Shown one piece after another: positions 7,198 to 60,359 of a stretch of 64,000 nt of DNA. Below the pieces are notes generated by a model. That model worked only from the letters and a program-made list of their open reading frames with translations, was not told the DNA's origin and did no database searches. Positions within the stretch are counted from its first letter, which is position 1; the number at the start of each line of letters is the position of its first letter. The stretch lies in assembly GCA_017936565.1 (NCBI GenBank), contig JAGBFG010000012.1:2254-66253 (forward strand), in the 5' to 3' direction. The DNA comes from Clostridia bacterium (GTDB lineage: Bacteria > Bacillota > Clostridia > Oscillospirales > CAG-272). A program made the position numbers and the translations under genes.

Positions 7198-7872
7198 ATG
7201 GTGACCTTGGGAAACGATTGGGACGAAATATTGGCAAGTGAATTTCAAAAGGAGTATTATCAGCGGCTTCGACGCATTTTGGCAAGCGAATACCAAAAAT
7301 ACCGTATCTTCCCCGATATGTACGATATTTTCAATGCCTTTCGGTACACGCCGTACCACAAGGTAAAGGTGGTTATTTTGGGGCAAGACCCTTATCACGA
7401 GATAAACCAAGCCCACGGGCTTTCCTTTTCCGTGCCCGACGGCACGCCCCTGCCGCCCTCTTTACAAAACATTTTCAAGGAATTGGAGAGCGACCTTGGC
7501 ATTCCCCGCTCGGCAAACGGTGACCTTTCCTCTTGGGCAAGGCAGGGGGTGCTGCTTCTGAATGCGACCTTAACCGTGCGAGAGGGGCTTGCCAACAGCC
7601 ATCAGAGCATTGGCTGGGGGCAGTTTACCGACAGGGTCATTTCCTTGCTTAACGACTCCCCTTCCCCCATTGCTTTCCTGCTTTGGGGCAATTTCGCCAA
7701 GCAAAAGGCATCGGTCATTACAAATCCCCGACACCTGATTTTGACCTCGGCACACCCAAGCCCCTTATCCGCATCCCGCGGCTTTTTCGGCTCCCGTCCT
7801 TTTTCTCGCATCAATGCCTTTTTAGAGCAAAACGGGCTCTCGCCTATTGACTGGGCACGGACGACTGTATAA
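7198..7872 (+). CDS. ung: Uracil-DNA glycosylase
   Basis: VVILGQDPYH and HPSPLS motifs. Confidence 0.95.
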   Translation: MVTLGNDWDEILASEFQKEYYQRLRRILASEYQKYRIFPDMYDIFNAFRYTPYHKVKVVILGQDPYHEINQAHGLSFSVPDGTPLPPSLQNIFKELESDLGIPRSANGDLSSWARQGVLLLNATLTVREGLANSHQSIGWGQFTDRVISLLNDSPSPIAFLLWGNFAKQKASVITNPRHLILTSAHPSPLSASRGFFGSRPFSRINAFLEQNGLSPIDWARTTV

Positions 7873-9521: not shown

Positions 9522-9914
9522 GGGGGTGTAAAGGTTTCGACGGGGATGTTGCGATATGATAAGCGTGGCGGGCTGAGTAATCCCGTTACAATGCTCAAAC
9601 TAAACAATAAACGACAACAGAACTGTTGCTTTGGCTGCTTGATTAACGCCTCTTTGTGAGGCTTAATCAGCGGTGCTGCGGTTTATTAACCGCCCGTTCC
9701 CCTTCCAAGTACCACGGTGGAAGGCTGAGCGTCATTTGAGTGGTGAACTTGCGCGGGTGTTTCGCCCTTGAACCCGCCAAGCAAAAAAGGGCTACCTTGA
9801 CCAAGAGCGTGTCTGTTCGCGCTTGCGATAGGGAAAGTTAAAAGCAGACTGTCCACGAAGAAAGTCATATTTAGATGTTCTCGGACACGGGTTCGATTCC
9901 CGTCATCTCCACCA
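9522..9914 (+). ncRNA. ssrA: tmRNA (transfer-messenger RNA)
   Basis: 5' GGGGGTGTAAAGGTTTCGACGGGG, 3' GGACACGGGTTCGATTCCCGTCATCTCCACCA; internal tag frame ...AAC GAC AAC AGA ACT GTT GCT TTG GCT GCT TGA (..NDNRTVALAA*, stop 9640-9642). Confidence 0.95.
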
Positions 9915-26581: not shown

Positions 26582-26665
26582 GCGAGAGTGGCGGAACTGG
26601 CAGACGCGCACGTTTGAGGGGCGTGTGGTTTATCCATACGGGTTCAAGTCCCGTTTCTCGCACCA
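26582..26665 (+). tRNA. tRNA-Leu (anticodon GAG), CCA encoded
   Basis: Hand-folded cloverleaf: acceptor GCGAGAG/CTCTCGC, anticodon loop TTGAGGG, long variable arm, T-loop GGTTCAAGTCC. Confidence 0.9.
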
Positions 26666-27938: not shown

Positions 27939-28673
27939 CTAATTTTTTAACCTGCCCATTATGATATGGTATGTACGTTTTAGAAAATCTTCGTAGTTAT
28001 TATAAATAACGCTATCGTCAAACGGGTCTTTTATCTTGTCAGAATAACTCATTAAATCGCTATCATTTATTACGCTACGATAATAATCAGCGTAATCGGT
28101 AGAGTTTCTAAAATAATAGTTCAATGCTTTTTCTTTTAACTTTATAAGAACAACGAGCGTTTTGTCGGGCGTATGAAAAAATATGCTGGGGTCATCTTTT
28201 GATAATGCTAAATATTTATCCAAATTATGTTCAGAAATAACGTCGTAACGCTTAAATTCGCCACCATTACTATAATAGGGGACTTTTTCAAAAATTATAA
28301 AAACTTGAAAATATGGAATAGAGTTTGCACGGATATTTGCTGTTTCGCCCAACATATTTTCAAAGTAGTTATTGCTGTTTTGAGAATAATTTCTCATTAC
28401 AAATTTTACGGCATATCCAGCAACTGGTTTACCATTTTTTAAGATAGTAATATCTACATTTTTAGGATAATAACGTCCGTTTATACTACCTTCTTTATCG
28501 TTTCCATATCCTTGCGACCTGATTGTAAATTCTTTACCTAAAAGATTTTCTAAATCCGTTGCTATATGTCCGTGTAAAGTCTTTAATTTAGCGGTGCTTC
28601 GAGATGTACCAACAGATAAATATGTCGCAAAAGATTTTTTAATAACTTTTAAAAATTCTTCATTTGTCATCAT
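27939..28673 (-). CDS. Putative type II restriction endonuclease partner of the adjacent methyltransferase
   Basis: ATGA start/stop overlap with the MTase gene; candidate nuclease core E61...D74(VDITI)...A88-V-K90 then [15 protein letters not shown]; no family recognised from memory. Confidence 0.55.
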
Positions 28674-30121
28674 TGTAAAAGGCCCCCATCGTATGCTAAT
28701 TTATAGTCTAAATATGCCTTTATATCTTTTGAAGAAAAAGTGTAATAACCACCGCTTTTATATTTGCCAAGTAAAGAAATGTAGGTTGAAAATTCTTCGT
28801 TTAATAATATTTCAGATATTTTAGACAAACTCTGCTCATTTCCTATTAGGTATAAACCGCTATATACACCCGTACCTGCTGGAGCGGATATAATCTTCAA
28901 GTCTGCCGAAGTTCGTAGTAATGCGTTAATCGAAATTTTATTTTTATAAGTATCGTTTATAGCCTGACTGCGACCAAAAGCAAACCAATAGGAATCAGCC
29001 TTATTTTCCAAACTGCGTTTTAATAATTTTGATTTGTTTTCAAGTAAATAGTTGTATAATTCCTTATCCTTAACTAAACTTTCTTCTACTACCAATTTCC
29101 CCTTTTGGTCATAAGGATAAATAATTTGCTTATGTTCTCCACGAGATGCTTTAATAACAGGAATAATATATTTGGACTTAAATTCAAAAGAGCCTATAAA
29201 TACGTCATCGCATAATGTTGCGTACCCATTTTTTACTTCTATATCGCAACGTCCCAAATTGAAAAATACTTTTTTTAACAACGATAAATTGCTTTTAGTA
29301 GAGAAGTAAAATTTTTGTGCAATATAATAATCATTTGGTGTTAGTGTTTCAACATAATACGGTATCAAATTCTTTTCATCAAATTGATAGTATTCTAATT
29401 TGTGAGAACAATGCTGTTTGTTAAGTATCACTATTGTCGTATATGTTGTTGCATTAAATGCCTGAAAATGTTTTAGGTCAACAAGTTTTTCAATTAAATT
29501 TTCTTGCACAAAATATTTGCGCATATAATTCCCTGCCAAACTATTAAAAAATGAACTTGGGGTAATATAACCGAGAATACCATTTTTATTTAGCATTTTT
29601 AGGCCAATTTCATAAAAAACGATATATAAATCGGTCATACCGTCTTGCGCAAAAGAAAACTTTTTTGCCATATCGAAAGAGGCGTCTAAATTATGAACTC
29701 TGACATACGGGGGATTTCCTAAAACATAGTCCATTTTTCCATTGAACTTATCTACCGTTAATGTATCGGAACAAAGTATATCCCACTCAATTTCAGTAGT
29801 TATTCCATAACGTTTTATAATCGAATTTAAGTTTTCTAAGCATTTCCTATGTTCGATAGGCTCAATTTCTATGCCGTGTATATAAGTTTCTAATTGATTT
29901 ATTAAATCTTCAAAAGCGACACTATTACTTATTGCAATATTACAGTACCTATCTACTATTTCACATAAAAAAGCACCGTCGCCACAACTATTATCGATGA
30001 CGTGCTTGTTTAGTATTGTTACTCCGTTATAGTGAGCCATATCAAGTATGTTTTTAACTATATAATCGGGGGTATAAACTCTACCTTTTGATTTCTTTGC
30101 AGTTTTCGTATTTGCAGGCAT
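28670..30121 (-). CDS. N6-adenine DNA methyltransferase (gamma class, TaqI/Eco57I-like) with C-terminal target-recognition domain
   Basis: [10 protein letters not shown], motif [13 protein letters not shown], motif IV LGNPPYV; ATG 30121 follows AAAGGAG. Confidence 0.9.
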
Positions 30122-30187
30122 ACATTTGATGCTCCTTTTGTGCAAGTAACGAGCATCAAACTTTGTAATTGATGCACATTTTTATTT

Positions 30188-30216
30188 ATTATACCAAACA
30201 TTTCATAAAAAGTCAA
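30188..30216 (-). promoter_or_regulatory. sigma-A-type promoter (extended -10) for the M-R operon
   Basis: Minus strand TTGACT (30216-30211), 17-nt spacer, TGgTATAAT (-10 at 30193-30188). Confidence 0.7.
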
Positions 30217-30227
30217 TGTGAACTGTA

Positions 30228-30386
30228 TTACTGAACGGCAATCGTTTCGTCCCATTTTGTTCCTGCTTTGATATTGTTATCTAACCAAACACGATACCCA
30301 TCCTTTTTCATTTGCTCTAAAATGGGATAGACCGTCTTCGCGTCTTTATGCGCATAGCTGATAAAAATATAGTTGTTTCCATTCAT
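30228..30386 (-). pseudogene. Truncated TIR-domain gene (first ~52 codons only)
   Basis: MNGNNYIFISYAHKDAKTVYPILEQMKKDGYRVWLDNNIKAGTKWDETIAVQ* matches the first third of TIR_2-type domains and stops 12 nt from the M-R promoter. Confidence 0.7.
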
Positions 30387-30548
30387 AACGCAGCCCTCTT
30401 TTTGCTTCTTCAAACTAATTTTAGCATATTTTGGCGCGGGTGTCAACATTGTTGAGAAAAAAGCCAAGCCGAAGCCTTGCTATTTCTTTTTGCTCATGCT
30501 ATAATGAAAAGGAGACCACAATTTCAGTAGAAATTTACAGGAGTTTGT

Positions 30549-46074: not shown

Positions 46075-47472
46075 TTAATACGCGATATGCTCTTCGATGT
46101 AGGTCTTCAATTCGGCAACGGGAACACGCACCTGCTCCATCGTGTCACGGTCACGGACGGTGACACAGCCGTCATTTTCGGTTTCAAAGTCCACGGTGAT
46201 ACAATAGGGTGTTCCTATCTCGTCTTCTCTGCGGTAGCGCTTACCGATAGAGCCCGTTTCATCAAAGTCCACCATAAAATAGCGGGAAAGCTCGGCATAG
46301 ATTTCCTCTGCCTTGGGAGAGAGCTTCTTGGAAAGAGGAAGGATGGCTGCCTTATAGGGAGCGAGAGCAGGATGCAAATGAAGCACCACGCGCACGTCAT
46401 TCTTTTCGGCATCCAAAACCTCTTCATCGTATGCGTCTACCAGGAAGGCAAGAGCCACACGGTCAGCACCAAGCGAGGGCTCTACCACGTAGGGCGTATA
46501 GCGCTCGTTGGTTTCGGGATCAAAATAGGTCATATCCTTGCCGCTATGGTTGCCGTGCTGGGTCAGGTCATAATCCGTTCTGTCGGCAATGCCCCAAAGC
46601 TCGCCCCAACCGAACGGAAACAAAAATTCAAAGTCGGTGGTGGCTTTGGAATAGAAGCAAAGCTCCTCGGGATCGTGGTCGCGCAGGCGGAGATTTTCGT
46701 CCTTCATACCGAGGTTGAGAAGGAACTTATGGCAATAATCCTTCCAGAAAGCAAACCATTCAAGGTCCGTGCCCGGCTTGCAGAAGAATTCAAGCTCCAT
46801 TTGCTCAAATTCACGGGTACGGAACACAAAGTTTCCGGGGGTAATTTCGTTGCGGAAGGATTTACCGATTTGCGCCACGCCAAAGGGGAGCTTGCGACGG
46901 GTGGAGCGCTGTACGGCAGGAAAATTCACGAAGATACCCTGCGCGGTTTCGGGGCGCAGATATACGGTATTGGAATTGTCCTCGGTAACGCCGATAAAGG
47001 TCTTGAACATCAGGTTGAACTTCTTGATATCGGTAAATTGCTTGCCACCGCAATCAGGGCAGGCAATGTCCTTTTCCTTGATATAGGCAGCCATTTCCTC
47101 AAAGGTCCAGCCGGCAGGATTGTCGTCCGTTCCGTTCTGGAAGGCGTATTCCTCAATCAACTTATCTGCGCGGTGACGCGCCTTGCATTGCTTGCAGTCC
47201 ATCAAGGGATCGGAGAAGCCGCCGACGTGCCCCGAGGCAACCCAAGCCTGCGGGTTCATAATGATGGCGCTGTCAAGCCCCACGTTATAAGGAGATTCCT
47301 GGACAAATTTTTTCCACCACGCCTTTTTTACGTTGTTCTTGAACTCCACACCCAAGGGGCCGTAGTCCCAGGAGTTGGCAAGACCGCCGTAAATTTCAGA
47401 GCCGGGAAAAATGAAGCCTCTGTTTTTGCAAAGCGCCACAATTTTGTCCATTGTTTTCTGTCTGTTATCCAT
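46075..47472 (-). CDS. glyQS: Glycine--tRNA ligase (homodimeric type)
   Basis: [24 protein letters not shown]..., [21 protein letters not shown] motifs. Confidence 0.95.
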
Positions 47473-53686: not shown

Positions 53687-54301
53687 ATGGAAATTATTCG
53701 CATAAACGATAACAAGCTGAAGGTCATTCTCACCGAGCAGGATATGACAGACTATGCCCTCTCTACCGAGGAGCTGAATTATGACAACACCGAAACCCGC
53801 AGGGCCTTGTGGGAAATATTAGACGAGGCAAAGCAAAAAACAGGCTTTAACGCCGCCGCTGAACGCATTTTTGTGCAAGCCTATCCCGATAAAAAGGGCG
53901 GCTGCGAGATTTACGTTACAAAGTTCGGGGAAGGAGAACGAAGCGTTAAAAGAGAGGAAGGCAAACGGATCTTGCGCGGGCGAGTCAGTATTTTTGCCTT
54001 TGAGGATTTCAATATGCTTTGCGAGGTTTGCGCTAAAATTCACAAGAGAGGCGGCGTGTATGAAAGTGCTGTATTCTTTCACTCTCCCCTCTATTACCTT
54101 TTTATTAAAGAGCCCCTCTCCACCGCCATTTTCAGTCAAAGCAAGCTCTCCCCACTGAGCTTCGTTGAGGAATACACCCCCAGAGCCAAAAGCAATCTCC
54201 TTGGCGCTTACATAAGAGAGCACGGAGAATGTATTTTACCCAAAAACGCGATTGAGAGACTTGCTGCCTTCGGCGCGCCTGTAACGGCTAATACTGTGTA
54301 A
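53687..54301 (+). CDS. mecA: Adaptor protein MecA
   Basis: MEIIRINDNKLKVILTEQDM...RRALWEILDEA pattern typical of MecA N-domain. Confidence 0.8.
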   Translation: MEIIRINDNKLKVILTEQDMTDYALSTEELNYDNTETRRALWEILDEAKQKTGFNAAAERIFVQAYPDKKGGCEIYVTKFGEGERSVKREEGKRILRGRVSIFAFEDFNMLCEVCAKIHKRGGVYESAVFFHSPLYYLFIKEPLSTAIFSQSKLSPLSFVEEYTPRAKSNLLGAYIREHGECILPKNAIERLAAFGAPVTANTV

Positions 54302-54435
54302 TAATAACTGATAAAGCGATGAACATACGTATTTTCTTTGAAAATCTCCCTATTTTGCGCCTTTTTTTGCGCAAAATAGAGCGGACTGTCTCGAAAGACA
54401 GCCCGCTTTATTTTTAGGGGTTTGCGCTTTATAAT

Positions 54436-54891
54436 CTATTCATCAAAATTTGCCAAATTATAAATTCTTTTGCCTTTTCTTCTTGCGTGTTTATAGGTTG
54501 TATACGCTCCACCCCAAGCATGAGAAACGTAAGCCACAATATAATCGGATTTTTCCACCATATATTTGTTGCGATATGTGATCGCAAATCGTTTGGGTTT
54601 ATCCTCAATTTCAGGATAGATAATTAAATCATATCTTTTCTTTTGGTATTCCAAGTGGTTTTTCTGATATTCCAGAGTCAGATACGGAGTAACAAATATG
54701 AGCGAAATTTTGGGGTGCTTTTCCTTGTATTTCTTGCAGCAATTATATGCAAAATTATCAAAATCCCCGTAATCACCTAAATACATATCGGCGTATTGAT
54801 TTCCTACTTTTTCTTCCAAAAAGTCAAGTATTTTTTGCTCGTGTTCCTTTGATTTAGGAAACTGAGCGTGTCCGCAAAAAGCTATAATCAT
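54436..54891 (-). CDS. SLOG/DUF1273-like (DprA/LOG-fold) small protein in an AT-rich islet
   Basis: IAFCGH near the N-terminus and HAWGGAYTTYKHARRKGKRIYNL near the C-terminus resemble the DUF1273/SLOG pattern; ATG 54891 preferred. Confidence 0.55.
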   Translation of the reverse strand: MIIAFCGHAQFPKSKEHEQKILDFLEEKVGNQYADMYLGDYGDFDNFAYNCCKKYKEKHPKISLIFVTPYLTLEYQKNHLEYQKKRYDLIIYPEIEDKPKRFAITYRNKYMVEKSDYIVAYVSHAWGGAYTTYKHARRKGKRIYNLANFDE

Positions 54892-54906
54892 AGCTTCTTC
54901 TCTCTT

Positions 54907-54930
54907 ATTATGTAGGTGCACCTACATAAT
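54907..54930. promoter_or_regulatory. Perfect 24-bp palindrome (attatgtaggtg|cacctacataat), probable XRE operator; extra TGTAGGT-like half-sites at 54960 and 55009
   Basis: Read directly from sequence in the divergent SLOG-like/xre intergenic region. Confidence 0.6.
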
Positions 54931-55054
54931 ATAGCATACTTTTGAAAAAATCAAGAGTATGTAGGTATGCCTTCTTATAATTTTGTCAATTTCCTGGTAC
55001 ACTGTATGCGTAGGTAAATCTACGGAGTTAAATCTTCTTATCGGGGGTACCAAC

Positions 55055-55300
55055 TTGACTGTAAATGACGCTGTTGCAAAGCGGATTTCCAAGCTGCTGC
55101 GCGAAAAGGGTATGTCACAATATCGCTTGGAGCAAGAATCTGGAATACAGCACGGAAGTATGCAATGCATAATGAACGGACGAAACAAAACGGTAACGCT
55201 GAGCACCGTCATTATGCTGGCAAAAGGATTTGGTATGCCTCTGACTGCGTTTTTGGATGATGCTGTTTTCCGTTCAGAGAATTTAGAGATAGAACAGTGA
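55055..55300 (+). CDS. XRE-family HTH transcriptional regulator
   Basis: VAKRISKLLREKGMSQYRLEQESGIQHGSMQCIMNGR HTH_3 pattern; TTG 55055 after GGGGG preferred to track start 54983; terminator 55300-55330. Confidence 0.8.
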   Translation: MTVNDAVAKRISKLLREKGMSQYRLEQESGIQHGSMQCIMNGRNKTVTLSTVIMLAKGFGMPLTAFLDDAVFRSENLEIEQ

Positions 55301-55428
55301 AAGCCGCCTTGCGTATGGGCGGCTTTTTTGCTTTTTTACCTTGACTTTTTGTGGGAATGTTGTTATACTGTTTTTGAAAGAGACACCGATGACATACTTT
55401 TGAGAAAAAACAAAATCGGAGAAAAAAG

Positions 55429-55980
55429 ATGAACACTTCCCAAGCACAACCGAAAAAATTAAGGCTTGCCGCCATACTGCCGCAAAAGAGGGAGCTTTTG
55501 GCTGCTTTTTGCGCGGTTGCGCTCGCCGTTATACTGCCGCAGCTGTGCCATTTGATTGGGGGAAAGCCCCTTGGAAATATGCTCTCTCCTATGCACCTGC
55601 CTATTCTTTTTATCGGTCTTTTGTCAGGCGCCAAGGCGGGCGCCTTGGCGGGCTTTGCCGCGCCCTTGGTCAGCTTTGCCTTGACGGGAATGCCGCCTGT
55701 GCTCTCTTTGCCGTATATGGTCGTGGAGCTTTGTTTTTACGGATTGACAGCAGGCATTTTGAACGGAACAAGGCTGCCGTCTTTGGTGCGTCTTGTCTTT
55801 GCGCAGGTCGCGGGGCGTGTGGCTCGTTTTTTGGCGATGGGCATTGCCCTTCTCTTCTTCTCACAGACCTCGCTTTCCCCCGTTTCCATTTTCCTTTCCG
55901 TGAAGGAAGGAATTTGGGGATTGGCTTTGCAATGGCTTCTCATTCCGCCCTTGCTCTTTTGGGTGAAAAGAAAAAAATAA
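55429..55980 (+). CDS. ECF transporter S component-like membrane protein
   Basis: Six-helix small membrane protein with ILPQLCHL...MHLPILFIGLLSG pattern. Confidence 0.6.
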   Translation: MNTSQAQPKKLRLAAILPQKRELLAAFCAVALAVILPQLCHLIGGKPLGNMLSPMHLPILFIGLLSGAKAGALAGFAAPLVSFALTGMPPVLSLPYMVVELCFYGLTAGILNGTRLPSLVRLVFAQVAGRVARFLAMGIALLFFSQTSLSPVSIFLSVKEGIWGLALQWLLIPPLLFWVKRKK

Positions 55981-56033
55981 GAGGTCCTTTAACGAAATCT
56001 CTTTAAAAAACCGAAAAATCTTTCAAAAACCTC

Positions 56034-56062
56034 TTGCTTTTTGCAATATGTTGTGTTATAAT
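56034..56062 (+). promoter_or_regulatory. Promoter of tRNA-Trp
   Basis: TTGCTT 56034-56039, 17-nt spacer, TGtTATAAT (-10 at 56057-56062). Confidence 0.65.
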
Positions 56063-56075
56063 ATAGCAGTCGCAA

Positions 56076-56151
56076 AGGGGTGTAGTTCAGTTGGTAGAAC
56101 GGCAGTCTCCAAAACTGCATGTCCAGAGTTCAAGTCTTTGCGCCCCTGCCA
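56076..56151 (+). tRNA. tRNA-Trp (anticodon CCA), CCA encoded
   Basis: Hand-folded cloverleaf: acceptor AGGGGTG/CGCCCCT, anticodon loop CTCCAAA, T-loop TTCAAGT. Confidence 0.9.
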
Positions 56152-56187
56152 AACAAAAAGCACGCCTGTCGGCGTGTTTTTTGTTTG
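56152..56187 (+). terminator. tRNA-Trp terminator
   Basis: aaaaagcacgcc-tgtc-ggcgtgtttttt; outer arms include the tRNA 3' end ctgccaaac / gtttggcag. Confidence 0.8.
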
Positions 56188-56250
56188 GCAGGACGCAAGG
56201 TTGCGAAGAAATATGCCAAGGGTTACACCCTTGGTCAGAGGGCAAGTCTG

Positions 56251-56294
56251 AGAGAAGCAAGGTTAAAGCCTTGCTTCTCTTGCGCCCACTGCCA
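56251..56294 (+). other. tRNA 3'-half-like fragment (T-arm-like hairpin plus acceptor-CCA copy)
   Basis: gagaagcaagg-ttaaag-ccttgcttctc then ttgcgcccactgcca, compared with authentic tRNA-Trp 3' end ttgcgcccctgcca. Confidence 0.55.
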
Positions 56295-56336
56295 AAAATC
56301 GACAAGTTTCGACAGAAGCTTGTCGATTTTTACTTT

Positions 56337-56371
56337 TTCACTCTTCACTCTTCACTTTTCACTCTTCTCAT
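56337..56371 (+). repeat. Tandem heptad TTCACTC x4-5
   Basis: ttcactc 56337, 56344, ttcactt 56351, ttcactc 56358, ttctcat 56365; inverted gtgaa copies at 56396-56417. Confidence 0.7.
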
Positions 56372-56546
56372 ACGAAACTTGTCGATAGGGAATAGGTAAA
56401 AGTGAATAGTGAAATGGGGCTGATGTTGCTTTTCTCCTTTTAGTCGAAAAGCATTTATTTATATGTGGGTTCAAATCCATATCAAAACTACGAAAAATAT
56501 TTTTTTTGTCGCCCCTTCCAAACCAAAAGCAAGCCGAATATTTCAC

Positions 56547-56575
56547 TTGAAAGATTAACGCTTTTATGCTATAAT
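56547..56575 (+). promoter_or_regulatory. Promoter of the TIR-domain gene
   Basis: TTGAAA 56547-56552, 17-nt spacer, TGcTATAAT (-10 at 56570-56575). Confidence 0.65.
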
Positions 56576-56606
56576 AGCAAGCGAAAGAAATCAGGAGGGC
56601 AAGTAG

Positions 56607-57671
56607 ATGTCTGCTTATTTGGGCTTTGAGCCTACGAAAAATCCTATTTATTATTTTGTCAGCTACAACAACGAGGATGTCGAGCGCGTGGGAAGCATTG
56701 CGAAGACGATGTCGTATTCCGGTATTCATTTATGGTATGACCACGGGATTGAATACGGTGATAACTGGGAAACCATTATCGCGGAAAGAATCCAGAACGC
56801 GCAAGCCATCGTTTTGTTTTTTACAAAAGGTATTTTACAAAAGAGCCATTCCTACGTCCAAAAGGAATATAAAATGGCAACGCAATTTTACAACAAAAAA
56901 ATATATATCGTGATGCTTGACAGGATAGCAAACGAGGATGTTCCCGTAGACAAGGTATCCTGGTGGATTGACATCAACGAAAAACAGTGCATTGACGGTT
57001 TCAAGCACACGAGTGTTCCCTCTTTGGTGGAGGATTTTGCCCGCGCTCTTGGCATTCAGACGCACGAGGACAAAATGAACAAGGCGATTGAGCAGTACAA
57101 CGAGCTTTACCACGGCGGCAGAATTGCCGAGGCGGAAAGATGCTTATCCGAGTATTTACACGGCGTTTCCTTGTGGGGAAAGGTGCGACTGTTAAGCAAC
57201 ATTGTCCGCCAAAAAATGCCGGGCACGACGATTATTTCTCCCGCAAGGAAGGTAGAGGAAAAGCTGCAAAAGCCCTTATACACGCATATGAAGGAGCCGA
57301 AATACCAGTTCTTTGACTGCAAGCAGATTACCATAGAAAATGACGTATACACGGTTGCCAATGAATATTTGTTCCACCGCGGAGACAGAGGAGACGCGCA
57401 TATTATTTGGATATGGAAAAACGACGAGCTTATTCATACGGTAGGGGGACTTGTTGAGGCGACGGATTTAGGGGTCTATTGGGACTCGCAGGACCGCATT
57501 CTTTACGTTTCATACACCTCGGAAAGAGAAAGAGTCACCGATACTTACCAATATATCGGCAGCGATATTTTACCGGGTATCACAACGGTGGAGCTTTCGG
57601 GCGAAGAAATCGTTTGTACGAATTTTGATTTTTCTGAAAACAAGAGTTATCAATCAATAAAAAAAGGATAA
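56607..57671 (+). CDS. TIR-domain protein with ~210-aa C-terminal domain of unknown function
   Basis: YYFVSYNNEDVERV...HLWYDHGIEYGDNWETIIAERIQNAQAIVLFFTKG...SHSYVQKEYKMA fits TIR_2; candidate catalytic Glu87 at 56865-56867; RBS GGAGG. Confidence 0.8.
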   Translation: MSAYLGFEPTKNPIYYFVSYNNEDVERVGSIAKTMSYSGIHLWYDHGIEYGDNWETIIAERIQNAQAIVLFFTKGILQKSHSYVQKEYKMATQFYNKKIYIVMLDRIANEDVPVDKVSWWIDINEKQCIDGFKHTSVPSLVEDFARALGIQTHEDKMNKAIEQYNELYHGGRIAEAERCLSEYLHGVSLWGKVRLLSNIVRQKMPGTTIISPARKVEEKLQKPLYTHMKEPKYQFFDCKQITIENDVYTVANEYLFHRGDRGDAHIIWIWKNDELIHTVGGLVEATDLGVYWDSQDRILYVSYTSERERVTDTYQYIGSDILPGITTVELSGEEIVCTNFDFSENKSYQSIKKG

Positions 57672-57683
57672 AAGTAAGAGATT

Positions 57684-58709
57684 ATGAAGGCTAACGTAAA
57701 AGAAAAGGGGTTGTTTATACTGGGGCTTGCGATTTGCTTCGCTCTTGCTGCGGTATCTGTTTTTTTGGAGAGCCTGATTCCCCAAGGGTTTCTTGGCGCT
57801 TCTATAATCGCTTTGTTTTTGGGCGCTGTCATAAACAGCTTTTTTCACCCGATTTGGATAAAGCCATCGCTCAAATTCGCTTCCAAAAGGATTTTGAAGG
57901 TAGCCATTATACTTCTTGGCGCTTCCCTGTCCATTAACACTGTTATGTCTGTTGGCAAAATGACCTTTTTCGTGATGGTGTTCACGTTTGCTATGTGCTT
58001 TGGCGGCGGTTTTTTCGTTCGTAAGCTCTTCGGCTTGAACTGGAAGCTTGGCAACCTTATTTCCGCGGGAACGGGAATTTGCGGCGGTTCTGCTATCGCC
58101 GCTATTGCGCCTGTCATTGACGCGGACGATAAGGATATTGCCTTTGCTCTTTCCTCTACGTTTCTCTTTGATATGGTGATGATTGCCCTCTATCCTCTTA
58201 TGGGACAGGCGCTTGGTATGTCTGACATTGCTTACGGTATTTGGGCGGGAACGTCCGTCAATGATACTGCGAGTGTCGTTGCCTCGGGATATGCCTTTTC
58301 CGAAATCGCGGGCGATTTTGCGACGATGGTTAAGCTGACCCGCACCATTGCCATTATTCCTACGGTATTGGTTTTTGCTTTTATCGGTACTCGGTTAAAG
58401 CAAAAGGAGCTGAAGGAAGCCAACCAAGGAAAAAGGGTGAATGTAGTCAAGATTATTCCTTGGTTTATATGCGGCTTTCTGCTATTGGCAATCTTAAACA
58501 GCATAGGCGGCATCCCCCAAGCAGCCTCGGGTATTATCAAGGACACCAGCAAGTTTCTGATGGTTACCGCCTTGGCGGCTATCGGCTTAGGAACAAGCCT
58601 TCTTGATTTCAAGAAGGCGGGGCTAAGACCTATGTTCTATGGAATCGTGATTGATACGCTTGTGACCTTGACCGCGCTTGGCGTTATCTGGTGCATGGGC
58701 TTGATGTAA
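57684..58709 (+). CDS. yeiH: YeiH/UPF0324 family membrane protein (putative sulfate exporter family)
   Basis: Polytopic protein with SAGTGICGGSAIAA and GIWAGTSVNDT motifs. Confidence 0.8.
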   Translation: MKANVKEKGLFILGLAICFALAAVSVFLESLIPQGFLGASIIALFLGAVINSFFHPIWIKPSLKFASKRILKVAIILLGASLSINTVMSVGKMTFFVMVFTFAMCFGGGFFVRKLFGLNWKLGNLISAGTGICGGSAIAAIAPVIDADDKDIAFALSSTFLFDMVMIALYPLMGQALGMSDIAYGIWAGTSVNDTASVVASGYAFSEIAGDFATMVKLTRTIAIIPTVLVFAFIGTRLKQKELKEANQGKRVNVVKIIPWFICGFLLLAILNSIGGIPQAASGIIKDTSKFLMVTALAAIGLGTSLLDFKKAGLRPMFYGIVIDTLVTLTALGVIWCMGLM

Positions 58710-58850
58710 AATCATCTCAAAGCACAAGAAAACAGGCGGGTTTCTATTGACATTGCCCTACCTTTATGCTATAATGTTTCACGATAAGCGTAGCAGAAAA
58801 ACGACAAAAATTCTGCCAAAACAAGTCCATACATAACAGGAGCTTTTACT

Positions 58851-60359
58851 ATGAAAATCTTAAACGTGATGAACTTTGTCAGACAGTGTGAGCCTCGTAA
58901 GGAAGGTGTTGACCACCTGCTTTTCAACACCACCAAGGCGGAGCTTGAAATCGTCAATGAATACAAGATTGACAACACATTTTTGCTTCAATACGACGTT
59001 TTATGTGACGAAAAATACATCAAGCTTTTCAAGGAAAACGCAACCTCACAAACCGAGCTTGGTCTTTGGTATGAGATTGTAGAGCCCTTGACGACGGCGT
59101 GCGGTATGCCCTACAACAGCAAAGAGGGCTGGTCCTGGGACTGGCACATCATTCCCGGCTTTTCTATGGGCTATTCCGTGGAAGAAAGAGAAAAACTCAT
59201 TGATGAGGCAATGAGAAAATTCAAAGAGGCATTCGGCTACTATCCCGCAACGGTGGGAAGCTGGCTGATTGACACGCACACCATCAACTATCTGGTCGAG
59301 CATTATCATATTGAAGCCTTGTGCTGCTGCCGCGACCAAGTGAGCACGGACGCCTACACCCTCTTGGGCGGGTATTTCAATCAGGCTTACTACCCTTCCA
59401 AAAACAACGTATTCACGCCCGCGCAAACCCAAGAATGCAGAATAAACGTTCCGATGTTCCGTCTTTTAGGCCCCTCTCCCATACAAAACTACGACAACAA
59501 GAAATATCTCTCCGAAACGAGCCGAAAAATTGGCGGCTGTTGGACGATGGAGCTTTTCTGGTATTCAGGATACACCCCTGAGATTGTGGATTGGTTTTTT
59601 GAAAGCTATTACAAGAACGAGGATCTCGGCTTTTCCTACTGTCAAATCGGTCAGGAAAACAGCTTTGGCGCGTCAAGAGACCTGTCAAAGGCTCTCCGTA
59701 TGCAATTAGACAAGGCTGTGGCTTTAGACGGTGTAACCTTCCAGAAAATGAAGGATACGGGCAAATGGTTCAAGGAAACCTACAAGGACAAGACGCCCGC
59801 GACCTCCGTTGCGGCTTTGAGAAACTGGGATACGGTAGACGCGCAATCCGTTTACTATGATTGCCAGAACTACACCGCAAACATTTTCCGTCACAACAAC
59901 CAGATTTTCATTCGCGCCCTTTACCTGTTCGACGAGCGTGTAAAGGACCGATATTTAACCGAAAAATGCACCCGCTTTGACGCTCTTTACACCAACCTGC
60001 CAATTGTGGACACCGTGCTTGCCACGCCCGAAAAGAAGGAAGACATCGGTCTTCTCTTGGACGGCGACGCCACAGCCTTTACCGCGGAAAAAACAGCCGA
60101 GGGTGTTTTGGCTGTCAAATGGGGTGACAAGTCCGTTATTTTCTCGGAAGAGGGGATAACCGTTTGCGGTGTGGATACGCTGACCTGGTTCAAGGAGAGC
60201 CTGCAAGGTGAGGTATCCTTGCAAGATGGCGTTTTCCGCTTCTGCTACGAAGGAAACGCATATAGCTTTGTCTGCGAGGGCGGCATTGTTAAGGAAACGG
60301 AAGACGCCTATGTGATTGAAAAAGACGGAAAGGACATTGCATTTTCCTTCATTCGATAA
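58851..60359 (+). CDS. Hypothetical cytoplasmic protein (502 aa), possibly carbohydrate-active
   Basis: Strong consensus promoter at 58747-58775 and a good RBS; no family recognised with confidence. Confidence 0.5.
   Translation: MKILNVMNFVRQCEPRKEGVDHLLFNTTKAELEIVNEYKIDNTFLLQYDVLCDEKYIKLFKENATSQTELGLWYEIVEPLTTACGMPYNSKEGWSWDWHIIPGFSMGYSVEEREKLIDEAMRKFKEAFGYYPATVGSWLIDTHTINYLVEHYHIEALCCCRDQVSTDAYTLLGGYFNQAYYPSKNNVFTPAQTQECRINVPMFRLLGPSPIQNYDNKKYLSETSRKIGGCWTMELFWYSGYTPEIVDWFFESYYKNEDLGFSYCQIGQENSFGASRDLSKALRMQLDKAVALDGVTFQKMKDTGKWFKETYKDKTPATSVAALRNWDTVDAQSVYYDCQNYTANIFRHNNQIFIRALYLFDERVKDRYLTEKCTRFDALYTNLPIVDTVLATPEKKEDIGLLLDGDATAFTAEKTAEGVLAVKWGDKSVIFSEEGITVCGVDTLTWFKESLQGEVSLQDGVFRFCYEGNAYSFVCEGGIVKETEDAYVIEKDGKDIAFSFIR

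Follow-up and report, generated by a model that had tools for sequence, protein, structure and literature searches.

The gene at positions 56607 to 57671 (forward strand) of a clostridial contig raises the question of whether a TIR protein without an evident partner, and with a C-terminal half that resembles no catalogued domain, could form a complete one-gene defence or stress system. The stretch of DNA in which it lies, hereafter the window, comprises 64,000 nucleotides of the Clostridia bacterium assembly GCA_017936565.1 (contig JAGBFG010000012.1, positions 2,254 to 66,253 of the forward strand), and all coordinates refer to the window unless another locus is named. The open reading frame (ORF) is a real, conserved gene. 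Its product joins a known enzymatic TIR module to a new sensor fold within a narrow host range, and this combination is what is new here; the TIR annotation as such is already present in NCBI. We assign a probability of about one half to the reading that the product is a soluble, cytoplasmic, three-part protein which acts alone as sensor and effector of the abortive-infection or growth-arrest type.

The coding sequence (56607..57671, forward strand) encodes 354 residues from an ATG start, divided into a TIR domain, a helical linker and a family-specific beta domain, and is backed by the ORF list, by homologues and by the structural model. It coincides exactly with the ORF of the initial annotation, and all peptides quoted there lie within it. 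The encoded protein is 100% identical to the NCBI entry "TIR domain-containing protein [Clostridia bacterium]" from a Clostridia metagenome-assembled genome (MAG). About 40 full-length homologues were found at 36-67% identity; 39 of them were aligned, and this alignment also served as input for the AlphaFold2 model. The N-terminus MSxYLGFxPT is conserved in the alignment and thereby fixes the start codon. A ribosome-binding site, AGGAGG (56593..56598, forward strand), can be read directly in the sequence 8 nt ahead of the ATG. The extended -10 promoter proposed initially is found as a promoter-like site, TTGAAA-17 nt-TATAAT with a TG (56547..56575, forward strand), which has 11 of 12 consensus matches and is to be read as a consensus match only.

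Residues ~14-135 (56646..57011, forward strand), which had been taken for a bacterial TIR domain, are recognised as such by Pfam, by a profile match with AbTir and by structure. Pfam TIR_2 (PF13676) covers residues 17-126 (E 1.4e-13, 51.9 bits, gathering cut-off 28), and the AlphaFold2 model has an alpha/beta domain at residues 16-130. In Foldseek the modelled TIR superposes on AbTir (7uxu_A) with a target-normalised template-modelling (TM) score of 0.77 and a root-mean-square deviation (rmsd) of 3.1 Å, and likewise on SARM1 (TM 0.61-0.71), on RPS4 and plant TIRs and on Cat1. An NCBIfam search of the protein gave no match. By sequence as well as by fold, the closest solved relatives are AbTir and BtTir (7uwg, 7uxu, 8g83, 7uxr; family profile against AbTir E 8e-6), which cleave nicotinamide adenine dinucleotide (NAD+) and are thus NADases. 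They share with the present protein the FxSY..ED motif of strand A, the WYD motif and an aromatic-x-x-x-Glu where helix C begins. However, identity is only ~18-19%, and the TIR of AbTir and BtTir lies C-terminal to a coiled coil, whereas here it is N-terminal and precedes the linker and the beta domain.

The candidate catalytic glutamate, Glu87 (codon 56865..56867, forward strand), lies in the motif Y83-V-Q-K-E87 and is identified by conservation and helix register. Its conservation, proposed at the outset as a check, is nearly complete: Glu87 is invariant in all 39 full-length homologues and is kept by 49 of 50 TIRs of the wider subfamily, while position 83 is Y or F in 46 of these 50. In the AlphaFold2 model a helix of residues 83-94 starts at Tyr83, with Glu87 as its fifth residue, so that Y83...E87 supplies the aromatic-x-x-x-Glu at the start of helix C by which enzymatic TIRs are told. 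The catalytic W-x-x-x-E motif is represented by W204/E208 in AbTir and by W638/E642 in SARM1. Judged by motif and helix register, Glu87 would be the equivalent of AbTir E208 and SARM1 E642, and the TIR domain is probably an NAD-cleaving enzyme.

The full-length AlphaFold2 model (mean predicted local distance difference test, pLDDT, 88.6) consists of three parts, the TIR being followed by a set of helices and a set of strands. Residues 137-200 (57015..57206, forward strand; consensus GRxxEAExYLxEYLHGxSLxGKA) are modelled as a four-helix linker, with helices at 137-148, 153-169, 173-186 and 189-200. Residues 205-345 (57219..57641, forward strand) form an all-beta C-terminal domain (C-domain) in which seven long antiparallel strands, connected by short turns, span residues 237-341. 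Modelled by itself, the C-domain reaches a pLDDT of 91.8 and a predicted TM score (pTM) of 0.84, which marks it as an autonomous fold. Mean pairwise identity is 62% for the TIR, 46% for the linker and 42% for the C-domain, the least conserved part. A signature motif, F256-H-R-G-D-R-G-D-A-H265 (57372..57401, forward strand), emerges from the alignment in a beta-hairpin loop of the C-domain. Its family form is F256-H-R-G-x-R-G-D-A-H265, in which F256, D263 and A264 are invariant and H257, R258, G262 and H265 are kept in at least 90% of the sequences. Cys238 on the first and Cys337 on the last strand are both present in 31 of the 39 sequences.

Residues ~140-354 had been described as matching nothing recognisable, and searches of residues 205-345 bear this out. 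Pfam, applied to the C-domain of 29 members, returned nothing recurrent and no match beyond sporadic noise, and a profile search of PDB sequences gave nothing below E 0.008 (an echo of domain C of cyclodextrin glucanotransferase, CGTase). Foldseek found no significant match in the PDB (best E 0.06, TM 0.3-0.4, pieces of beta-propeller enzymes) or in BFVD (best E 8.6e-3, query-normalised TM 0.42, an uncharacterised phage protein). A C-domain profile run against 1.84 billion (1.84e9) representative proteins yielded 32 hits only, nearly all of them proteins of 326-346 residues or their fragments; among ten hits scanned with Pfam, eight carry TIR_2 and a ninth a degenerate TIR. The C-domain is family-specific, found only joined to this TIR, and without match in Pfam, PDB and BFVD. 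One hit is an exception: a protein of 385 residues in which the repeat "KVWKNGDLLYTL...SDGDIYTSG" occurs six times (E 1.5e-4). Its match to the profile suggests a blade-type repeat as the origin of the C-domain hairpins ("IWIWKNDELIHTVGG...VYWDSQDRILYVSYT").

We interpret the C-domain as sensor-like because it folds autonomously, is fused only to this TIR and diverges faster than the TIR (42% versus 62% identity); sensor domains evolve faster than the effector part. The main comparative argument for a sensing role of the beta domain is that the same TIR module has been shuffled onto many sensors. In related MAGs the same N-terminal TIR (45-64% identity, LGFxP and Glu87 intact) is fused to TPR, Sel1, STAND ATPase plus TPR, VWA, LRR, L7/L12 C-terminal-like or zinc-ribbon/TM2 modules. 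Immune or conflict receptors show just this pattern, a single effector module combined with many different sensors. As individual cases, the proteins P0049-P0052 combine this TIR with a ribosomal L7/L12 C-terminal-like domain (PF00542), and VWA fusions, as well as one from a Solobacterium MAG to an AAA_16 STAND ATPase with TPR, are found among P0053, P0054, P0057 and L037 8001-10469.

Under the reading we prefer, the N-terminal TIR would cleave NAD+, with Glu87 on helix C as the catalytic residue and Tyr83 as the aromatic residue one helical turn ahead. At rest, the linker and the beta domain would hold the TIR domains apart. A trigger, most plausibly a phage component, would be bound by the beta domain and cause the molecules to self-associate; the TIR domains would then pack head-to-tail and complete their active sites, and NAD+ would be hydrolysed or cyclised until the infected cell stops growing. 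NADase activity, autoinhibition, the kind of trigger and the effect as a defence are all inferred, with abortive infection as the most likely setting of a defence role. A precedent exists in the single-protein TIR systems that defend E. coli against phage in dependence on the TIR active site (TIR-II, which is TIR+TPR, and TIR-V, -VI and -IX; Wang et al. 2024, PMC11350192). These, too, consist of one gene with a TIR and a variable non-catalytic region, and some close paralogues of the present TIR are, like the E. coli TIR+TPR system, TIR+TPR or TIR+Sel1 proteins. Unlike the E. coli systems, the present family has a new beta fold and uncultured gut Clostridia as hosts, and the likeness noted here is one of architecture.

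The distribution of the family is narrow. All homologues come from uncultured Clostridia of the mammalian gut (Eubacteriales, Oscillospiraceae, Acutalibacteraceae, Ruminococcus), sampled from ruminant, deer, yak and human gut, and a pattern-based, incomplete scan of 185,579 species-representative genomes found the full TIR+beta architecture in ~11. The plasmid collection held no match to the family, and the phage collections gave one weak TIR-only phage match and two IMG/VR contigs with TIR-only relatives. Carriage by phages or plasmids was accordingly rejected, the family being absent from the plasmids and essentially absent from the phage collections.

In ~18 independent loci, whose 139 neighbour proteins were compared all-against-all by BLAST, no partner gene is conserved, save within one group of four syntenic species, and the protein can be called a stand-alone, single-gene TIR protein, as the initial annotation had it. 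Neighbours elsewhere include uvrBA, an AraC regulator with Sa_NUDIX, a ROK kinase, GDPD and PGA_cap. In the window, a gene for a PF03601/YeiH-family membrane protein (57684..58709, forward strand; Pfam E 3e-68) starts 12 nt past the TIR stop codon, just where yeiH had been placed, and the terminator scan detects no terminator-like site between the two genes. They probably share a transcript, although yeiH, which is absent as a neighbour from every other TIR homologue locus examined, is probably no functional partner of the TIR protein.

YeiH is represented by more than 120 clusters at 83-88% identity, compared with 67% for the next TIR homologue. Relatives lack the TIR gene upstream of yeiH, and DNA homology to them starts only at 57677-57681, just before yeiH. 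In one such relative (L054 2048-7026, YeiH 85% identical) the interval between tRNA-Trp and yeiH is taken by genes for an LRR_5 protein (358 aa), a 158-aa protein and a PBP_like_2 protein, which identifies the interval as a variable slot. One homologue of the TIR gene is carried as cargo by a conjugative element that also encodes topoisomerase III, a DUF3991/Toprim primase, a VirB4-like ATPase and TrbL. In 4 of ~17 TIR loci the gene is directly preceded by a tRNA gene of the same orientation (Trp, Leu-UAA, Ser-UGA and Gln); judged roughly by how dense tRNA genes are in the loci examined, the chance rate would be below 1% per locus. The gene is a self-contained accessory gene, as follows from the lack of a conserved neighbour, its absence beside yeiH in relatives, the copy in a conjugative element and the tRNA adjacency.

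Further loci illustrate the surroundings of the family. A 65%-identical human-gut homologue is cut off after residue ~240 by an insertion sequence (L057 4924-7744; the same in L058-L061). This insertion sequence carries a 255-aa transposase/integrase-like ORF on the strand opposite to the homologue, and the gene directly upstream of the interrupted one encodes 328 aa, with two TIR-like segments in tandem and a tail that resembles LRRs. The closest homologue in a species-representative genome adjoins a 999-residue protein with an SspH/mad8-like C-terminus. PADLOC returned strong matches to mad3 and to a CBASS 2TM effector in the pooled neighbour scan, not tied to a locus, and none on the neighbours of the TIR gene within the window. 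At L009 8042-9262 (reverse strand), an Sa_NUDIX (PF18167) protein and a 130-aa protein are encoded divergently, directly upstream of the homologue P0022; the RTasNUDIX match of the pooled scan is probably this Sa_NUDIX protein.

Several observations weigh against an immune function. In the E. coli survey only 37.5% of the tested TIR proteins were phage-protective (PMC11350192). Ungapped hidden Markov model (HMM) alignments with AbTir and BtTir set Glu87 two residues off the catalytic glutamate, an offset that is due to a loop two residues longer before the helix in the TIR+beta family. Of the suggested DefenseFinder/PADLOC check, the PADLOC models match only the TIR part, with E-values of 5e-4 to 2e-3, and since these matches are weak and confined to that part, the protein is not recognised as a known system. 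With yeiH, the gene of a housekeeping transporter, the TIR gene probably forms an operon. Its G+C content at third codon positions (GC3) is 0.54, equal to that of its neighbours and hence native; the lower GC content first noted for the gene is marginal (0.44 against a window mean of 0.477, standard deviation 0.051, 14th percentile), and horizontal acquisition, as judged by base composition, is unsupported. Clear defence-type neighbours occur in only ~3 of 18 loci, and the PADLOC matches among the 139 neighbours are mostly generic (topoisomerase to DpdF, VirB4 to mad8, UvrB to PbeA/DinG). The distribution is not that of a core gene, given the 67% identity of the next homologue and the absence beside yeiH, but the association with defence islands is weak.

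Four species (L022, L023, L024 and L025), moreover, hold the TIR gene in one syntenic slot, which likewise speaks against the immune reading. The TIR proteins of L022 and L023 share 96.7% identity, compared with 83% and 69% for the flanking proteins, and this hints at either a recent exchange of the TIR gene or an unusually strong constraint. The slot lies between a 576-aa gene and a set of genes of 121 and 486 aa.

Such points would fit a non-immune, lineage-specific role, in which the protein would be a regulated NAD(P)- or nucleotide-processing or signalling enzyme of normal physiology (stress, dormancy, sporulation or envelope signalling), and the ligand or protein bound by the beta domain would be endogenous. 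The native GC3 and the likely operon, the mostly housekeeping or metabolic neighbours with few of truly defence type and the syntenic position in four species are all in its favour, and the sister TIRs that stand ahead of a membrane helix with surface-type domains suggest signalling over phage sensing. We nevertheless regard this role as unlikely. One would expect a housekeeping function to be inherited more widely and more stably, whereas the family occurs patchily (~32 half-identity clusters in the 1.84e9 representatives, besides the ~11 species genomes), is missing at this locus in close relatives, has copies in a conjugative element and beside another TIR gene, and is enriched next to tRNA genes. 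More doubtful is a signal-producing TIR in the manner of ThsB, whose product, derived from ADP-ribose (ADPR), would be read by an effector encoded elsewhere, such as the SLOG-like protein at 54436-54921 (reverse strand). The weak matches to ThsB models, the Sa_NUDIX gene beside the P0022 homologue and a weak YpsA/SLOG match (E 0.0026) 1.7 kb upstream in a low-GC segment point in this direction, as does the fact that AbTir-type TIRs, to which the protein is related, make cyclic ADPR isomers. But no SLOG, SIR2, Macro or other effector is conserved as a neighbour, and no other TIR locus has an equivalent of the SLOG-like gene. This gene scores 18.2 with the SLOG Pfam model (cut-off 27.7) and is encoded on the strand opposite to the TIR gene, with an HTH gene, a transporter gene and the tRNA between the two. 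In the signal-based TIR systems described so far, sensor and effector genes are neighbours, which is not the case here, and a Thoeris-like pairing with the SLOG-like gene was rejected as the pairing is not conserved.

Two further explanations appear far less probable. The protein could be a non-enzymatic adaptor that couples through TIR-TIR contacts to paralogues with a TIR, a membrane helix and LRR or InlB repeats, as MyD88 does for Toll-like receptors. A large paralogous set with the same TIR and the invariant LGFxP, including single-pass LRR membrane proteins, would provide the partners, yet the near-invariant Glu87 argues for catalysis, no membrane paralogue is visible near the TIR gene in the window, and the pattern-based, incomplete scan found no species-representative genome with both beta-domain and membrane forms; we consider this function highly improbable. 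Equally remote is an exported TIR NADase directed at competitors or the animal host, like TcpB/BtpA/TirS or the NADase toxins of secretion systems. The family resides in gut bacteria, TIR NADases are documented from such bacteria (PMC9092222), and the conserved MSxYLGFxPT could in principle be an export tag. The protein has, however, no signal peptide, and no immunity or secretion-system gene is conserved as a neighbour; in the model the conserved N-terminus packs against the TIR (pLDDT 84), and it is common to paralogues whose TIR, N-terminal to a membrane helix, must stay cytoplasmic.

Among established systems, Thoeris ThsB is a TIR with accessory regions too, and matches the protein weakly (Pfam ThsB_TIR E 0.09; PADLOC ThsB E 1.8e-3). 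ThsB senses infection and works with an adjacent ThsA effector; in contrast, no ThsA effector (SIR2-SLOG or Macro/TM) is adjacent in the ~18 loci considered here. The top Foldseek matches of the full-length model are SPARTA TIR-APAZ proteins (E 2e-6, over ~380-430 columns), which are broadly similar in their order of TIR, helices and beta-rich region. Their query-normalised TM score is only 0.31-0.33 at an rmsd of ~22 Å, so that the TIR alone superposes convincingly, and the C-domain by itself retrieves no APAZ chain at a significant level from the PDB. No Argonaute or PIWI protein was found among the neighbours of the annotated TIR loci, and a SPARTA-like identity was rejected for the lack of an adjacent Argonaute gene and the low TM score. 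A TIR effector of CBASS, Pycsar or type III CRISPR systems was likewise discarded, since PADLOC SAVED_TIR covers residues 16-87 only (E 5e-4) and no cyclase is a neighbour, as was a STAND/NLR-type TIR (Avs-like, TIR-NLR), since a P-loop NTPase domain is missing and residues 137-200 are four short helices.

Innate immunity in bacteria, plants and animals has the TIR domain as its common enzymatic core, and systems differ in the way this core is switched on. There are many stand-alone TIR proteins whose extra domains are uncharacterised, and defence by a single TIR gene is established already. The protein is probably a one-gene phage-defence or stress sensor, and as such a variation on the well-known TIR theme, not a new kind of system. 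Its value lies in a compact TIR protein of 354 residues with a confidently modelled sensor domain of unseen fold and apparently no partner, and such a protein would lend itself well to the study of how a TIR is triggered in a new way. The family also extends what is known of the defence repertoire in uncultured Clostridia of gut and rumen, a repertoire that is largely unexplored.

The membrane-anchored sisters of the protein are a more surprising lead than the TIR+beta gene. They carry the same TIR, followed by one predicted hydrophobic helix at ~residues 175-270 and then by large surface-type domains (L026 3090-9074; L028 1750-5847; L031 2129-4408; L030 8001-9536; L045 7908-9467; L041 2003-3541), and L041 differs from the others in having seven predicted helices. 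Their ectodomains are BspA LRR_5/LRR_8 (1994 and 1365 aa), InlB B-repeat/PKD (759 aa) or unmatched, and several MAGs hold two paralogues with a TIR and a membrane helix. Because a signal peptide is lacking, the predicted helix would leave the TIR in the cytoplasm and the LRR outside, a topology like that of Toll-like receptors. We found no description of bacterial TIR-TM-LRR proteins in the literature, which is not proof of absence. It is conceivable, if improbable, that the present gene belongs to a lineage-specific TIR receptor repertoire in which a conserved TIR module and interchangeable soluble and membrane sensors form one network, and in which the beta domain, as a new fold derived from propeller-blade repeats, would drive TIR assembly by oligomerising.

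The tRNA gene reported ~450 bp from the TIR gene is a tRNA-Trp (CCA) on the same strand, at 56076..56151 and 455 bp upstream (ARAGORN; Rfam tRNA 63.8 bits). The inverted-repeat and terminator scans show that it is followed by five consecutive near-perfect hairpins (56145..56413, forward strand). The first of these has a terminator-like stem of 22 bp which starts inside the 3' end of tRNA-Trp and leads into a T run, and the array also holds a TTCACTC-repeat hairpin. Over ~300 nt the array folds with a minimum free energy of -146 kcal/mol, compared with -80 kcal/mol for shuffled sequences (z -13.3). Rfam, searched over 54000-59000, recognised nothing besides the tRNA and gave no match for the hairpin array.

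The tRNA-like scars noted earlier are degenerate same-strand copies of the tRNA-Trp 3' end. One (TTGCGCCCACTGCCAAAA, 56280..56297) has a single insertion relative to 56138-56154, and the second is TGTCGCCCCTTCCAAAC (56507..56523); at up to 2 edits, 0.09 such copies are expected per window. Further near-copies of the 16-nt tRNA-Trp 3' end occur at 46870-46884 (forward strand) and 7803-7817 (reverse strand). A delimited genomic island at tRNA-Trp was considered and rejected: both tRNA-end copies are upstream of the TIR gene and none flanks it, no integrase is among the neighbours, and the gene is therefore not part of such an island.

The remaining features of the window touch the TIR gene less directly. 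The SLOG-like gene (54436-54921, reverse strand) encodes 161 aa, has a GC content of 0.35 and a GC3 of 0.34, and looks recently acquired; its YpsA SLOG match (E 0.0026) is sub-threshold, and it is divergently paired with an XRE/HTH_26 gene (54983-55300, forward strand). The second TIR locus that had been claimed for the window is real, but it is a truncated fragment of a subtype unrelated to that of the gene at 56607-57671: a 79-aa ORF (30228-30467, reverse strand) covers only positions 1-45 of the TIR_2 model (E 6.9e-10), with 'YIFISYAHKD' as the mark of its different subtype. The fragment lies just upstream of an Eco57I-like type II DNA methyltransferase gene (491 aa; PADLOC MTase_II E 3e-146; region 28670-30467, reverse strand), and an FGE-sulfatase-like gene is found on the other side of this locus. 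A tmRNA (9522-9914, forward strand; tag DNRTVALAA) and a tRNA-Leu(GAG) (26582-26665, forward strand) are also present. From ~63.5 kb onward, same-strain contigs show that a glycyl-radical-enzyme/BMC microcompartment cluster (PFL-like, radical SAM activase, BMC, EutP) follows the end of the window.

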